The notes under the pieces were generated by a model that was given only the letters and a program-made list of their open reading frames with translations, was not told the origin of the DNA and ran no database searches. Shown here in pieces: positions 3,180-24,389 of a stretch of DNA of 64,000 nt (position 1 is the first letter of the stretch; each line of letters begins with the position of its first letter). Source of the DNA: Candidatus Buchananbacteria bacterium (GTDB lineage: Bacteria; Patescibacteriota; Patescibacteriia; 2-01-FULL-39-33); assembly GCA_041666945.1 (NCBI GenBank), contig JBAYFY010000002.1, positions 129,076-193,075 of the forward strand, given 5' to 3'. A program made the translations under genes and the position numbers.

Positions 3180-3223
3180 AAAAAAAGAGCGTTTTTTGTC
3201 CGAAGTTGGGGCAAAAAACGCTC
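3180..3223 (-). terminator. Intrinsic terminator after radical SAM gene
   Basis: Hairpin GAGCGTTTTTTG...ACAAAAAACGCTC followed by T7 on the minus strand. Confidence 0.5.
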
Positions 3224-3231
3224 AAAAGGAG

Positions 3232-4425
3232 CTAGCGAACTATTGATAATTTAACATCCGAACGGACTGTCTGACGGTAGCCCACGCCGTAGCGGCCTCG
3301 CAAATACCCATCCAGAATACCGCAACACTTTTGGTAGTGTGTTTCCCATTCTTTTATTTTTTGGGCGCTGAATTTTTCCGGATCCTTACCTTCCCGCAAG
3401 GCCTTGGCCTTAAGCCGGGCAAGAGTCGGGCCGTAGGGCTTTAGGGGGCCGATATGGACGCGCAAAGCGAAGTTTTCAATATTTCTTTCAATCATATTCA
3501 GCCATTTTACAAGCGTGTCCGGGTTGGGATTATACATTTGCGGGAAAATATCCAATCCCGCTTCCACCAGCGTGCGCAGGCAGAAAACCTGATCGGAAAT
3601 GGTGGCGTTAGCTTGAACGTTATCCCGCAGATTGGCGTTGTCTGTGCCTTTAATGGCCGCCAAAACCTTAACCGGAAAAACTGCCAGATGGCGGTAATAA
3701 TCAATCGGCCACAAGTGAGGGGTGGAGAGATTGGTGTCCACTTGCCCGACAATATCTTCTCCCCGTTCTTCAATCCGACGCCAGAGTTTAATGATCCAAT
3801 CCAGCGCTATGGTCGGTTCGCCGCCGGAAACGCGCAGGACTTTGATGTTCAAATCAACTCCGGTTTGTTTTTTGTAAATCTCTCGCACTTTATCCCGAGC
3901 CATTAAGAAGCTGTCAATAACGTCATCAACATCAACCAGCCATTTTTTTCCGGTTTCCCTTTGGCCGTCATTGAGTTCATTATCCACAAAACAATAAAGG
4001 CAGCCGCCGTCGCAGGCGCCGGAATGGAAATTGCAACCGGCCACCTGCAGGATAAACGGCGCATTATAATCTAAGGCACGAGACAATTCATAACCCGCAA
4101 TATGCTTGAACCACAAAGCGAAATCAAATTCCTGCTGCTTAAGGCATTCCTCAATTTCTCCCGGTGACAATCTGCTGGTATCAACAAATTTTTTGCCGTA
4201 AGCCCCAGCCGCTAAGGGGTCAACCTCTTTGGCGTTGAATTTAAAACGAAAAAGCTTTCGCCCGTCTTGGTTAGGCATTAATTCTATAACCTTACTGGTA
4301 TCCTTGCCTTGCAAGGTAGTGGAAAAATCAGCTACTAACAGTCGTCCGCCAGGCGTGACAATGGTTTGATGTAAGGCCTGCGCGCGTTCCAAGGGACTTG
4401 AGACATACGGTTGATCATTATTCAT
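3232..4425 (-). CDS. Radical SAM domain protein with ~130-aa unknown N-terminal domain
   Basis: AGCNFHSGACDGGCLYCF contains CxxxCxxC; GGE-like SGGEPT motif downstream; overlaps the upstream gene by 8 nt. Confidence 0.7.
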   Translation of the reverse strand: MNNDQPYVSSPLERAQALHQTIVTPGGRLLVADFSTTLQGKDTSKVIELMPNQDGRKLFRFKFNAKEVDPLAAGAYGKKFVDTSRLSPGEIEECLKQQEFDFALWFKHIAGYELSRALDYNAPFILQVAGCNFHSGACDGGCLYCFVDNELNDGQRETGKKWLVDVDDVIDSFLMARDKVREIYKKQTGVDLNIKVLRVSGGEPTIALDWIIKLWRRIEERGEDIVGQVDTNLSTPHLWPIDYYRHLAVFPVKVLAAIKGTDNANLRDNVQANATISDQVFCLRTLVEAGLDIFPQMYNPNPDTLVKWLNMIERNIENFALRVHIGPLKPYGPTLARLKAKALREGKDPEKFSAQKIKEWETHYQKCCGILDGYLRGRYGVGYRQTVRSDVKLSIVR

Positions 4426-4891
4426 AATCAGTTTCCCCCTCCTTTAAGAGTTTTATGAATTCTTGGGATAAATTCCGCAATCTTCTTCTGTCGTTTGCCG
4501 TTAGTGCTTTTAAAATTATTTCTCCCTGAAAATGCAGTTTTTTTAATAAAATGTAGCTTGAGCGGTTGGCGATGTTTATCTCGGTTATTAATTCGCTCAT
4601 TTCCATGCTCCACAAAGAAGTAAAAACCGAATTATCGTACCAATCTCCGTTTTGTCCGCGATAATAATGGTAGAATCGGCAATTCTTAAAGAAAACAGCA
4701 AAGCGTTTTTGCTCGCTTAATTTTTTCAGAATATTGCATATCCTGCCTATGCGGCTGTCAATTATCATCTGGCAACCGGTTGAACGACTGATTAGCTTTG
4801 GTCCGGAAAGATGGAAAATGGCGATGAGTAAATCCAATATGTCAAATTTTTCAGCCGGTGTTTTATTGCGCAGTTTTGTTGGCATATGCAT
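4418..4891 (-). CDS. Hypothetical protein with C-terminal winged-helix/HTH-like segment (probable start at MPTKLRNK)
   Basis: C-terminal SELITEINIANRSSYILLKKLHFQGEI resembles ArsR/MarR-type HTH; GAGGAGG RBS; own TTGACA-17-TAAGAT promoter upstream. Confidence 0.35.
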   Translation of the reverse strand: MHMPTKLRNKTPAEKFDILDLLIAIFHLSGPKLISRSTGCQMIIDSRIGRICNILKKLSEQKRFAVFFKNCRFYHYYRGQNGDWYDNSVFTSLWSMEMSELITEINIANRSSYILLKKLHFQGEIILKALTANDRRRLRNLSQEFIKLLKEGETDYE

Positions 4892-4969
4892 TACCTCCTC
4901 TGATTATCGTTGGTTTGTTAAGTTTTAATGTTCAATTGAATTATCTTACTATATTGGGGAGAAATGTCA

Positions 4970-5006
4970 AATAAAAACATCCCCGCGAACAGATCCGCGA
5001 GGATGT
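4970..5006 (-). terminator. Intrinsic terminator of secF (hairpin also followed by T-rich tract on + strand)
   Basis: CATCCCCGCG...CGCGAGGATG 10-bp stem flanked by A/T runs. Confidence 0.55.
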
Positions 5007-5031
5007 TATTTTGAGAATATTATTTTCCAAA

Positions 5032-7789: not shown

Positions 7790-7961
7790 GTGTTTCTGTG
7801 GATAAGAGTTAAATAACTGGAATTATTTTAACAAAAATAATTGAAAAGGGCAAGAATTACGCTATTTGTGCCGATTAGACCCAATTTTGAGCACTTAACA
7901 TTTTCAAAAAAAAGGTGTAAACTTAAATCATTGCTATTTTTAAGATAAAATTTTTAAAAGT

Positions 7962-9332
7962 ATGTCTAACTCTTATTCTACGGTTTGGAGCCGGTGCCGT
8001 TTGGCCACAAAAAGAGCCGCTATGCGTCTGGCCATTAAAATCGTCTCCCATTTGCCTGATCAAGGCCTGGTGGCGTTATCTTATGTGGCGGAAAAACTGA
8101 CTTACGGCAAGCCGGCCAAAACGGTCATTAAGCAATTCCGGGAATTAATTAAGATTAACCACCCCAGCATTGGCCTGGTGAGGAGGATTTTAAATGACAC
8201 CCAACCGCAAATTCGGAAAAAACTGGTGGATAACTTGATCATCAATGGTTTTCTATTGAATCAAGAAAAAAAATTGGCGGCCACGGCTGTTGGCGAAGCC
8301 GTGCCCACCACTATTTTGATCAGCCCGACCATGCGTTGCAATCTTAACTGCGTCGGTTGTTATGCCGGTAATTACAATAAGGCCGATGACCTGACATTTT
8401 TCGTTTTTGACCGGATTATTCGGGAAGCCAAGGATATGGGCGTATCTTTTTTCACCCTTTTGGGCGGTGAACCGCTGTTTTACCCTCATTTGTTTGATAT
8501 CTTAGAAAAACATCAGGACGTTTTTTTTCAGTGTTATACTAATGGCACATTGATTGACGGGGCTATGGCCGATAAAATTTCCGCTGTCGGCAACGTCTTG
8601 CCGATTTTGAGCATTGAAGGCCACGAAAAAGAAACTGATGAACGGCGCGGCGCTGGCGTTCATGAAAAAGTGCTGAAAGCCATGGATATCCTCAAGAGCC
8701 GGAAAATTCCTTTTGGTTTTTCCGTTGCCGTTACCAATAAAAACGCCGAACTGATTTCCAGCGATGAATTTATTGACGACATGATCAAACGCGGCGCTTA
8801 CCTGGGTTGGTTTTTCCTCTATATGCCCGTGGGCAAGGGCCCGGATTTAAGTTTGATGCCGACTCCGGCCCAAAGACGGATGCTGGTGGATCGCGTTGCT
8901 CATATCCGCGAGACCAAGCCATTGTTTATTGTTGATTTTTGGAACGACGCGCCGTTTGTCGGCGGCTGCATTGCCGGCAAGGAATACGTGCACATCACCT
9001 CCAAAGGCGATGTGGAGCCGTGCATCTTTACTCATTTCGCTGTGGACAATATAAAGGATAAGTCGCTCAAAGAAGTGATGAACTCGGATTTTTTCCGCGA
9101 TTTGCGCCGCCGCCAGCCCTATAATGAAAATTTGTATATGCCTTGCATGTGGATTGATAATCCCGAGGTCAGCCGCGAGGTCATCGCCCAGTTTCATGCC
9201 TACCCCACTCACGAGGGCGCTGATGATGTGTTGGTTAAAGAGGAGTTGAAAGCCGGCGTTGACGCTTATGCAGCCAAGATCAAAGAGATTTACGATCCGC
9301 TCTGGGAGAAGATGAGCCAGCCGAAAAAATAA
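7962..9332 (+). CDS. Radical SAM protein with C-terminal Cys-rich (SPASM/twitch-like) domain and ~100-aa unknown N-terminal extension
   Basis: MRCNLNCVGCYAGNY (CxxxCxxC), LLGGEPLF, C-terminal GGCIAGKEY...EPCIFTH...MPCMWID cysteines. Confidence 0.7.
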   Translation: MSNSYSTVWSRCRLATKRAAMRLAIKIVSHLPDQGLVALSYVAEKLTYGKPAKTVIKQFRELIKINHPSIGLVRRILNDTQPQIRKKLVDNLIINGFLLNQEKKLAATAVGEAVPTTILISPTMRCNLNCVGCYAGNYNKADDLTFFVFDRIIREAKDMGVSFFTLLGGEPLFYPHLFDILEKHQDVFFQCYTNGTLIDGAMADKISAVGNVLPILSIEGHEKETDERRGAGVHEKVLKAMDILKSRKIPFGFSVAVTNKNAELISSDEFIDDMIKRGAYLGWFFLYMPVGKGPDLSLMPTPAQRRMLVDRVAHIRETKPLFIVDFWNDAPFVGGCIAGKEYVHITSKGDVEPCIFTHFAVDNIKDKSLKEVMNSDFFRDLRRRQPYNENLYMPCMWIDNPEVSREVIAQFHAYPTHEGADDVLVKEELKAGVDAYAAKIKEIYDPLWEKMSQPKK

Positions 9333-9344
9333 TTAAAAGCAAAA

Positions 9345-9370
9345 CCTCGGAATCAGCTTCCGAGGTTTTT
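9345..9370 (+). terminator. Bidirectional intrinsic terminator
   Basis: AAAACCTCGGAAtcagcTTCCGAGGTTTTT. Confidence 0.6.
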
Positions 9371-9406
9371 GAATGTTCTTTTTTACTACTAACTACTAGT
9401 ACCGAC

Positions 9407-9724
9407 TTAGTACCAGTTATATTTTTCGATTAGTCGGTACTTCCAAGATTCTTCGAATTTTGATAATTTGGTGGATTCGCCATCGCAGTATTCCATGGTT
9501 TGGAGTTTTTCATACTGTCGTTCTAATATATAAACAGCAACTCCTATTAGGAATATCATAAATAACGCCGGCTCCCAAAATAAAGTGATGATGTCGGCGC
9601 TTTTCTTGCTAATCTTTTCCCCTACTTCGCTTACTTCGAGTAACGCCGAAGTTAAAACCATTCCCTCAAAGTGAACGATAATAATAATACCAATAATTAT
9701 CCCGACAATCAGAGTGTACAACAT
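9407..9724 (-). CDS. Small membrane protein, hypothetical
   Basis: 105 aa, two hydrophobic helices. Confidence 0.3.
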   Translation of the reverse strand: MLYTLIVGIIIGIIIIVHFEGMVLTSALLEVSEVGEKISKKSADIITLFWEPALFMIFLIGVAVYILERQYEKLQTMEYCDGESTKLSKFEESWKYRLIEKYNWY

Positions 9725-9901
9725 GAAATATTCTCCCTTTATTGTTTCTACGCCGTTTAATGTGCTTTACTGATGTATTCAGTAAATTATATTATTATAC
9801 ACCATTGGCAAAATTTTGTCAAGGTGTAATAATAATTTTGTTTAAAGTTAGCTATTTTATTGGGAACAGGCCTTACTTGTACCTTTGCGGTATGGCTTGA
9901 T

Positions 9902-23369: not shown

Positions 23370-24389
23370 TTAATTGAATAAGCTACGGATGCAACAGAAT
23401 GGCGCTTGTCCGAATTTATCAAAATGAGCCAAGGCCATGGATTTGCATCCGCCTTGGCACCAGGAATACTTCTGGCAGTTTTTGCATATCCCCGCCGCTT
23501 GGCAGATTTTATCATCCCGAAATAATCTCATAATTCCATTGTCTTGCCGCCAAATTTCTTTTAATGTTTTCTGCCGTATATTGCCTAAAATAAAACGTTC
23601 ATCCATTAGTGATAAGCAGGGCAAAACATTGCCGCAGGCATCAATCCCTATGGTCTGTTTGCCGGCCGTGCAGCCCGGCCAACCCGGACCGCGCAATAGA
23701 GTACAGTCATAACCGAAACAATCGGCCGCTCTGATATCTAAACAGGATTGATAAATATTACGCAGCTTTATTAAGGCAAGGCAAATTTCGCGGAATATTT
23801 TTTCATCTATTGCTAACTCGCTGTTATCTTTAGCTCGCCCGATAGGTGAAACCAGCTGAACTTGCCAGCCGGAAGCCCCGACCTTATGCAGCAGCTTGGC
23901 CAACTCCGGCAGTATCGCGTAATTCAGGCGACTGACAGTGGTAATGGCGGCAACCCGCAGACCTGCGGCCTTGGCCGTAGCGATGGCGTTTAGCGCCATT
24001 AGCCAGGAACGGTTATTGCCACGGATATAGTTATGTATGGCCGAATTGCCATCAACGGAAACGCCAAGAGTGCGGGCTCCCGCGTCTTTGAGTCGCTTAG
24101 CCAGATTATCGGTCATGGTTAAGCCGTTAGTGATTAAGGCGAAACCGATATTTTTTTCTTGCAGGCCGTCAAGCAGTTGCGGAAAATCATCTTTAATGGT
24201 TGTTTCACCGCCGGACAGTGTTAACTGTTTTAAGCCCAGTCCCCGTAATTGATCAAAGACCAGCAGCCATTCTTTAGCTGTCAACTCGTTGGCTTTAGTG
24301 TTTTTTACGCAATTAGAACCGCAATGTCGGCAATTGAGATTGCAACTTGCGGTCGTTTCTACTACCGCGTTAGTGATTTCTTCAAACAA
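23370..24389 (-). CDS. Radical SAM/SPASM domain protein
   Basis: CNLNCRHCGS CxxxCxxC at residue 16; C-terminal CxxxxC...CxxCxxxxxCxxxC SPASM-like cysteines (CLSLM, CKNCQKYSWCQGGC). Confidence 0.7.
   Translation of the reverse strand: MFEEITNAVVETTASCNLNCRHCGSNCVKNTKANELTAKEWLLVFDQLRGLGLKQLTLSGGETTIKDDFPQLLDGLQEKNIGFALITNGLTMTDNLAKRLKDAGARTLGVSVDGNSAIHNYIRGNNRSWLMALNAIATAKAAGLRVAAITTVSRLNYAILPELAKLLHKVGASGWQVQLVSPIGRAKDNSELAIDEKIFREICLALIKLRNIYQSCLDIRAADCFGYDCTLLRGPGWPGCTAGKQTIGIDACGNVLPCLSLMDERFILGNIRQKTLKEIWRQDNGIMRLFRDDKICQAAGICKNCQKYSWCQGGCKSMALAHFDKFGQAPFCCIRSLFN

Follow-up and report, generated by a model that had tools for sequence, protein, structure and literature searches.

What is the role of a pair of overlapping genes that lies between housekeeping genes of a candidate-phyla bacterium, and where did its enzyme come from? 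We encountered such a pair in a stretch of 64,000 nucleotides from a Candidatus Buchananbacteria bacterium (Patescibacteriota; contig JBAYFY010000002.1 of assembly GCA_041666945.1), in the following referred to as the window, where it is located on the minus strand between secF and rplU and encodes a radical S-adenosylmethionine (SAM) protein and a small partner protein. An initial annotation had described the pair as a radical SAM enzyme coupled to a regulator and as a candidate modification or defence module. The reading that we favour, with moderate confidence, is that of a two-gene operon whose functional-looking radical SAM enzyme, which resembles the activase of pyruvate formate-lyase (PFL), came from DPANN archaea, is accompanied by a probable accessory protein of orphan type and has a small phosphorylated molecule as tentative candidate substrate.

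Both open reading frames (ORFs) are confirmed on the minus strand, with the radical SAM gene spanning positions 3232..4425 (397 residues) and the partner ORF covering either 4418..4891 (157 residues) or 4418..4885 (155 residues), and they share the eight nucleotides ATGAATAA at 4418-4425. The annotated ribosome binding site GAGGAGG is found at 4894..4900. Since it precedes the ATG at 4885 by 8 nucleotides and that at 4891 by just 2, translation of the partner probably starts at 4885. The originally assigned length of 157 residues thus applies to the ORF, whereas the likely product contains 155 residues, in agreement with the NCBI record P0121. The ribosome binding site of the radical SAM gene, GGAGGGGG (4435..4442), falls within the terminal (3') part of the partner's coding sequence. 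A putative sigma-70-like promoter, defined by consensus match only (10 of 12 positions), is found at 4943..4970, and the spacer of this TTGACA-16-TAAGAT element is 16 and not, as previously stated, 17 nucleotides long. Immediately 5' of its -35 hexamer, a terminator-like hairpin following secF (4976..5007, minus strand) with a stem of 14 pairs (7 of them GC), a loop of 4 nucleotides and a T-rich tail marks the end of the upstream secDF unit. Downstream of the radical SAM gene, the operon is closed by a strong intrinsic terminator at 3180..3223 on the same strand, consisting of a hairpin (3223..3187) followed by U7 (-18.8 kcal/mol, z = -5.23), which folds better than any of 200 shuffled sequences. 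Pfam matches identify the genes on the upstream side as secD and secF and the downstream gene as that of ribosomal protein L21 (rplU), latter carrying its own promoter-like element TTGACA-17-TAAAAT. With a promoter-like site, terminators on either side and the 8-nucleotide overlap, the partner and the radical SAM gene read as an insulated, self-contained and translationally coupled two-gene operon between secF and rplU, as had been suspected from the outset.

This arrangement is not confined to the window. In four Patescibacteria genomes (L001-L004), the order secD-secF-partner-radical SAM-rplU-GT2 glycosyltransferase is identical, including the overlap, which in L001 and L003 is the same as in the window, and the pair was found at the same site in all four related genomes that were recovered. 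Ratios of nonsynonymous to synonymous substitution rates (dN/dS) of 0.22-0.25 for the partner, 0.07-0.11 for the radical SAM gene and 0.04-0.06 for secF show that both genes of the operon are under purifying selection and that the partner gene is real.

The radical SAM protein, whose 100% database match carries the label 'radical SAM protein [Candidatus Buchananbacteria bacterium]', belongs to PF04055, as its Pfam score exceeds the gathering threshold and as a GGE motif and a partial TIM-barrel fold are both present. In an AlphaFold2 model calculated from 55 sequences (pLDDT 94.1, pTM 0.93), the overall fold is predicted to be similar to the PFL activating enzyme (PFL-AE), which is its best structural match. 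The predicted PFL-AE-like partial (β/α) barrel comprises residues 122-345 (3391..4062). It is preceded by a family-specific N-terminal domain (residues 1-121; 4063..4425), delimited from alignments and modelled with pLDDT values of 90-97, whose residues D42, R60, K62, D69, F100, D101 and W105 are invariant in family alignments and which contains an invariant R60-x-K62-x-x-x-K66 strand. The barrel is followed by a similarly family-specific helical extension (residues 346-397 and the stop codon; 3232..3390) with a helix at residues 349-379 (pLDDT 95-99) and the invariant residues W360, Y383 and R388. The N-terminal domain had already appeared unfamiliar, with an estimated length of about 130 residues, and this impression is borne out: residues 1-121 match neither a Pfam nor an NCBIfam family, and neither this region nor the segment from about 346 to 397 is matched by Pfam in any of 55 members. 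When this domain was searched with a profile of its own, two truncated family members were retrieved and no other protein architecture.

The motif coordinating the [4Fe-4S] cluster requires closer consideration. The string AGCNFHSGACDGGCLYCF, noted at the outset, is present at residues 129-146, but its canonical spacing (CDGGCLYC) requires C138. This residue varies among family members, most of which have Ser, Thr, Glu or Pro at the position, with Cys only in the clade of the window and in the loci L024 and L039. Conversely, C131, C142 and C145 are invariant in alignments of 55 and 26 members and in 36 of 36 loci of a species survey described below, whose cellular members all read CNFH..GGC.YC with an invariant H134. 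In an hhalign alignment with E. coli PflA, whose sequence is identical to 3c8f_A, C131, C142 and C145 fall onto C29, C33 and C36 with a 7-residue insertion in the loop, while SGGEP is matched to SGGEA and DTNLS to DTNG. Based on the invariant cysteines, the register of PflA and a short phage motif in the same register (CNLDCWYC), we assign the predicted cluster loop to C131-x10-C142-x2-C145 (3991..4035), and a CxxxCxxC motif including C138 probably does not constitute the ancestral set of ligands. The SAM-binding motifs comprise SGGEP (200-204), D230-x-N232-LST and K259-G260. Between DTNLST and the next strand, the clade of the window is shorter than most archaeal members by about 9 residues (around residues 238-250, at about 3676-3714), with 'L-WPIDYYRHLAV' in place of the archaeal 'VV..FE.EGIYE..ILEKLA', due to a clade-specific deletion near the predicted rim of the active site.

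How does this protein relate to known radical SAM enzymes? In NCBIfam, it scores 17.2 bits with the YjjW activase model (TIGR04041, cut-off 250.2), 16.3 bits with viperin (NF038283, cut-off 180) and 12.3-14.3 bits with MoaA (cut-offs 231-325), and no model of QueE, PflA or NrdG was matched. The protein is thus not an orthologue of a characterized housekeeping enzyme such as QueE or MoaA, and orthology of this kind had been named as a refutation of the initial annotation. In a Foldseek search against BFVD, the matches were limited to generic radical SAM proteins (TM 0.2-0.38). Besides its low score, assignment as MoaA is disfavoured by the absence of conserved cysteines after residue 145 that could hold the second, C-terminal cluster. 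A maturase of ribosomally synthesized and post-translationally modified peptides (RiPPs) was rejected since none of 55 members contains a SPASM, twitch or PqqD/RRE domain or conserved auxiliary cysteines and since no small neighbour recurs. The archaeosine enzyme RaSEA (PMC11298593) was dismissed for want of an NCBIfam match of this type and of a neighbouring arcS, as was AmmeMemoRadiSam, for which no TIGR model matched, despite a Memo gene at a distance of about 4 kb in L001 and L003. The QueE of Burkholderia multivorans, the 7-carboxy-7-deazaguanine synthase, also has a lengthened cluster loop, with the motif CX14CX2C, and the protein of the window shows a weak PHROG match to a 'QueE-like radical SAM domain' (17.6 bits). 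It differs by the lack of a QueE match in NCBIfam and of queC, queD or tgt neighbours, and it is longer by about 170 residues, with unrelated terminal domains.

The resemblance is strongest to the activase branch comprising PflA (PDB 3c8f), NrdG and QueE, with which the family shares the order of motifs, namely the cluster loop after β1, SGGE(P/A), D-T-N after β3 and K after β4. The protein could accordingly be a divergent activase of a glycyl radical enzyme (GRE), either NrdD or PFL, that is encoded elsewhere, with the N-terminal domain docking the protein substrate. Such a role would agree with matches of Pfam Fer4_12, the NrdG/PFL-AE-type cluster domain, in 10 of 55 members, with YjjW as best though weak NCBIfam match and with the labels 'pyruvate formate-lyase activating enzyme' or 'organic radical activating enzyme' given to several members by JGI annotators. 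Moreover, DPANN archaea and bacteria of the Candidate Phyla Radiation (CPR) are anaerobic fermenters that often contain NrdD. However, the identity to PflA amounts to 16%, with an hhalign probability of just 4%, and the DGxGxR loop found in PflA and NrdG activases just before the cluster motif is missing, its place being taken by L118-D-Y-N-A-P123. Known activases lack both the 120-residue N-terminal domain, due to which the cluster motif of the family starts only at residue 131, and the C-terminal helical extension, as well as the 7-residue insertion of the CX10CX2C loop. No GRE family was found among the neighbours within 8 kb on either side in the 36 loci or in the 64-kb window, and none of 58 proteins of at least 450 residues in the former regions contained a C-terminal RVxG[YFW] motif. 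Large neighbours of 650-720 residues that were considered as NrdD candidates proved to be Rad50-like proteins, GyrB, MetRS, a histidine kinase, an AsnB-diphthamide synthase and a sulfatase. Finally, the family, with its 36 species, is far rarer than would be expected of NrdD in these phyla. We thus regard an activase as distinctly unlikely.

The distribution of the family bears on the origin of the enzyme. Searches at E<=1e-3 identified 147 clusters, most of them of about 400 residues and sharing roughly 50% of their residues across 97% of the sequence, whose names refer mostly to Woesearchaeota, Nanoarchaeota or 'archaeon', or else to Patescibacteria. In a survey of 185,579 species, each represented by one genome, 36 loci were found, about 31 of which are labelled archaeal (DPANN). 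The bacterial loci include two Patescibacteria (L007, from the clade of the window, and L018), one Saccharibacteria and one labelled 'Gammaproteobacteria'. Latter, on the contig L036 (CAZYUN010000026.1, 'uncultured Gammaproteobacteria'), encodes a radical SAM protein that groups with Patescibacteria L018 and shares with it a divergent gyrB neighbour, and the label of this metagenome-assembled genome may be a binning error. A literature search retrieved no description of the family, which is rare, uncharacterized, conserved over its full length and almost confined to DPANN archaea. In a neighbour-joining tree rooted on phage relatives, the clade of the window and the other bacterial copies nest inside the archaeal diversity, a placement which suggests that the gene moved from DPANN archaea into Patescibacteria by horizontal transfer. 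Gene exchange between the two groups is a subject raised in parts of the literature.

Beyond the family itself, related sequences could be detected solely on three IMG/VR contigs of 92-114 kb (L043-L045), each containing a gene for a radical SAM protein of 329-340 residues that is 26-30% identical over residues 112-336. These phage proteins share the stretches DYN..F.VQVA.C, CWYCFVD, R.SGGEPT, DTNL(S/A)T, KG and Y.P and the N-terminal R.K...K strand, and they retain R60, K62, K66, Q127, R198, SGGEPT, D230, N232, K259, Y298 and Y331. They differ by a canonical CX3CX2C motif (CNLDCWYC), by the absence of residues corresponding to about 69-105 of the N-terminal domain and of the C-terminal helices, and by their location in a conserved module of sugar/glycan type with PfkB, SIS, HAD, GT4 and methyltransferase genes. 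The module encodes, in conserved order, a PfkB kinase, an RNase T-like exonuclease, an MT-A70 methyltransferase, a Zn-ribbon protein, the radical SAM protein, a SIS/GmhA-like isomerase and a protein of about 265 residues with an EDD (DxD-like) motif. In L043, it continues with methyltransferases, a GT4 glycosyltransferase, a β-helix protein and a HAD phosphatase. The coordinates of the modules are 3796-15789 in L043, 6416-10725 in L044 and 4367-9595 in L045. Such a module may constitute a pathway for the modification of sugars or glycans (or of sugars on DNA) with a radical SAM step, and by analogy its context hints at sugar-phosphate or nucleotide-sugar chemistry for the cellular family.

The genes next to the cellular members are less informative. 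The initial annotation had recommended a comparison of gene neighbourhoods, whose outcome is divided, with an identical order in the four Patescibacteria genomes and no conserved neighbour across the 36 loci, where no gene family recurs in more than four. Genes found next to the radical SAM gene elsewhere code for Rad50-like proteins (4 loci), GyrB (2 loci), MetRS, TruB, SRP54, Topo VI-A, PCNA, TFIIS, NMD3 and Rpr2, to which a restriction enzyme and, in one or two loci, genes of the MNT/HepT type (nucleotidyltransferase/HepT) can be added. Among these and other genes are several with roles in translation or RNA metabolism, such as rplU in the window, MetRS, TruB, NMD3, Rpr2 and a ThiI-like PP-loop/NFACT-R protein in two Woesearchaeota. 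Together with the invariant R60-x-K62-x-x-x-K66 strand and with the MT-A70 methyltransferase and exonuclease adjoining the phage relatives, they would be compatible with an enzyme modifying RNA or DNA (tRNA, rRNA or nucleosides), whose basic N-terminal domain binds the nucleic acid while radical chemistry alters a base or ribose. Conversely, no neighbour recurs in more than four of 36 loci, chance alone would place housekeeping genes nearby in genomes of 1 Mb, a THUMP, PUA, TRAM or other known RNA-binding domain was not detected, and the patchy occurrence in 36 species would be unusual for a core RNA-modification enzyme. We consider this assignment unlikely. The PP-loop/NFACT-R protein, a fusion of 325 residues between a ThiI/PP-loop ATPase and an NFACT-R RNA-binding region that is encoded directly 3' of the radical SAM gene (7238-8215 in L005/L025), has an unusual architecture found in these two loci only.

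The proposal of a defence module fares worse. A viperin-like enzyme (pVip) would produce a modified nucleotide against phages, with the partner as sensor or regulator, and the patchy distribution across domains including phage-encoded relatives, the restriction enzyme, Imm5-like protein and HepT/MNT genes next to single members and weak matches to pVip (PADLOC PDLC02903, 14.6 bits, E 0.004, besides the viperin match in NCBIfam) over the cluster and GGE region could be quoted in its favour. Both proteins are radical SAM enzymes, and since an unrelated SPASM-containing radical SAM protein of the window (7962-9332) scores 45 bits on the same pVip model, the match reflects the shared radical SAM core only. 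The scores are far below the cut-off, the viperin-type C-terminal extension is missing, and the neighbours in the 36 loci are mostly housekeeping genes without a recurrent family rather than parts of defence islands. In light of these findings, we regard a function in anti-phage defence as highly improbable.

We next turn to the partner protein, for which a C-terminal helix-turn-helix of the ArsR/MarR type had been proposed. Although the stretch ELITEINIANRSSYILLKKLHFQGEII at its C-terminus resembles a helix-turn-helix by eye, this is not supported by profile tests: the protein has no match in Pfam, NCBIfam, PADLOC or PHROGs, no Pfam family, and hence no helix-turn-helix family, is matched at E<=10 in any of the four members, and a search of its profile against the PDB gave no match at E<=10. 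The protein is predicted to be helical, with a structure model that is unreliable. Among 5.8 billion proteins, we found four homologues, all from sister Patescibacteria, and HMMER, run exhaustively with the family profile over 1.84 billion representatives, revealed no relatives beyond its own cluster. In the alignment of four members, conserved features include C40, C52, C71 and GDWY, latter as part of an aromatic-rich CRFYHY..GDWY region. The GC content of the gene, at 37.6%, compares with 48.0% for the radical SAM gene, 45.4% for secDF and a mean of 45.3% in the window, and this low value agrees with a separate or recent origin of an orphan gene. No homologue of the partner is found next to the radical SAM gene in the approximately 31 archaeal or other bacterial loci, and it is unrelated to the Zn-ribbon protein preceding the phage enzymes (hhalign probability 0.2%). 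Coupling to a regulator is thus not supported as a property of the radical SAM family, most of whose archaeal and other bacterial members are monocistronic. Since neither a recurrent neighbour nor a homologue of the partner was found there, the enzyme appears to act alone in archaea. The partner is a lineage-restricted orphan and not a demonstrated regulator. Its most likely role is to assist the enzyme within this clade, for instance as adaptor, stabilizer or regulator, with DNA binding being unsupported by any of our results.

An alternative role of the partner would be that of a substrate, in which case the operon would encode a RiPP-like or protein-maturation pair of this lineage. The tight translational coupling kept in all four genomes, the invariant cysteines and aromatic-rich motifs of the partner and the activity of the best structural relative of the enzyme, PFL-AE, on a protein would all be in line with such a relationship. 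At the same time, about 31 archaeal and other bacterial members manage without such a partner, the enzyme contains no SPASM/twitch domain, RRE domain or conserved auxiliary cysteines, and the 155 residues of the partner are conserved from end to end, unlike a precursor consisting of leader and core. A substrate role of the partner is thus in our view very unlikely.

Returning to an accessory partner and a small phosphorylated substrate, the motifs and the predicted fold would be consistent with the following mechanism. C131, C142 and C145, in a loop that is longer by 7 residues, would serve as ligands of the [4Fe-4S] cluster, and SGGEP, D230/N232 and K259 would bind SAM. The reductive cleavage of SAM to a 5'-deoxyadenosyl radical is common to all radical SAM enzymes, and in the present case this radical would abstract hydrogen from a substrate that sits between the barrel and the N- and C-terminal parts specific to the family. 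The pocket is most likely closed by the N-terminal domain and the C-terminal helices, with the invariant basic and aromatic residues R60, K62, K66, R198, Y298, Y331, R337, Y383 and R388 predicted to contribute to this closure, and the partner would be a co-transcribed and translationally coupled accessory of the enzyme in this lineage. By analogy, the substrate could be a discrete phosphorylated small molecule such as a sugar phosphate, a nucleotide or a nucleotide-sugar, which we propose tentatively and would not yet call probable when taken on its own.

Several observations weigh against this reading. The assignment of a substrate class relies on the chemistry of residues and on distant phage relatives of possibly different function, sugar genes are not enriched in the archaeal neighbourhoods of the enzyme, and PFL-AE, its best structural match, acts on a protein. 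No characterized homologue is detectable by sequence, with nothing in NCBIfam near the cut-offs and no matches in the PDB for either the single sequence or the 55-sequence profile. The copy in the window carries C138 in addition to the invariant triad, and this residue may be among the cluster ligands of this particular protein. Furthermore, the tree is a quick neighbour-joining calculation without support values, which makes the direction of transfer a suggestion only.

A more ambitious version of this reading would ascribe to the DPANN/CPR enzyme, with its new N-terminal substrate domain and CX10CX2C loop, an undescribed reaction whose substrate is obtained by scavenging and is either a nucleotide, a sugar phosphate or a nucleotide-sugar, and to the partner the role of a newly evolved orphan that was recruited after the transfer as obligate adaptor or substrate. 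We consider this version as improbable, but if true it would define a new two-component radical system. Radical SAM enzymes without assigned function are common. What is new here is a PFL-AE-like family with a novel N-terminal domain and cluster loop that is joined to an orphan protein. The family is limited to two radiations of ultra-small symbionts, the DPANN archaea and Patescibacteria, with distant relatives in phages, and the identity of its substrate could point to a capability in metabolism or in the modification of surfaces that is shared and exchanged among these symbionts. It is also tractable, owing to a very confident model, conservation over the full length, an unusual cluster loop and an N-terminal domain without known relatives, and the partner illustrates cleanly how a gene restricted to one lineage can be joined to an enzyme that was probably gained by horizontal transfer. 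The locus also calls for caution, as a helix-turn-helix assigned from sequence alone fails in profile tests and as the 'canonical' CxxxCxxC motif of this copy probably differs from the ancestral ligand set.

Other genes of the window deserve mention. Directly 3' of rplU, a GT2 glycosyltransferase and an O-antigen-polymerase-like membrane protein are encoded on the minus strand (615-2760), in an arrangement that is kept in L001-L004. These surface-glycan genes are thus located 0.5-2.6 kb from the radical SAM gene, at a distance of two genes, which could be read as a further pointer to a sugar or nucleotide substrate but might be coincidental. The SPASM-containing radical SAM protein used above for comparison (7962..9332, plus strand) is encoded between secD and the GAPDH gene, and its best NCBIfam matches, NirJ2 and maturases of mycofactocin and sactipeptides, are all below cut-off. 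Since a gap of just about 120 nucleotides separates GAPDH from secD in the syntenic loci L001 and L003, the segment of about 2.1 kb at 7790-9901 looks like an insertion specific to the genome of the window. No obvious precursor peptide for the SPASM protein was identified in this segment, which also contains an ORF for a hydrophobic protein of 105 residues (9407..9724, minus strand). A third radical SAM-like ORF on the minus strand (23370..24389) encodes 339 residues with a CX3CX2C motif at residue 16 (TASCNLNCRHC).

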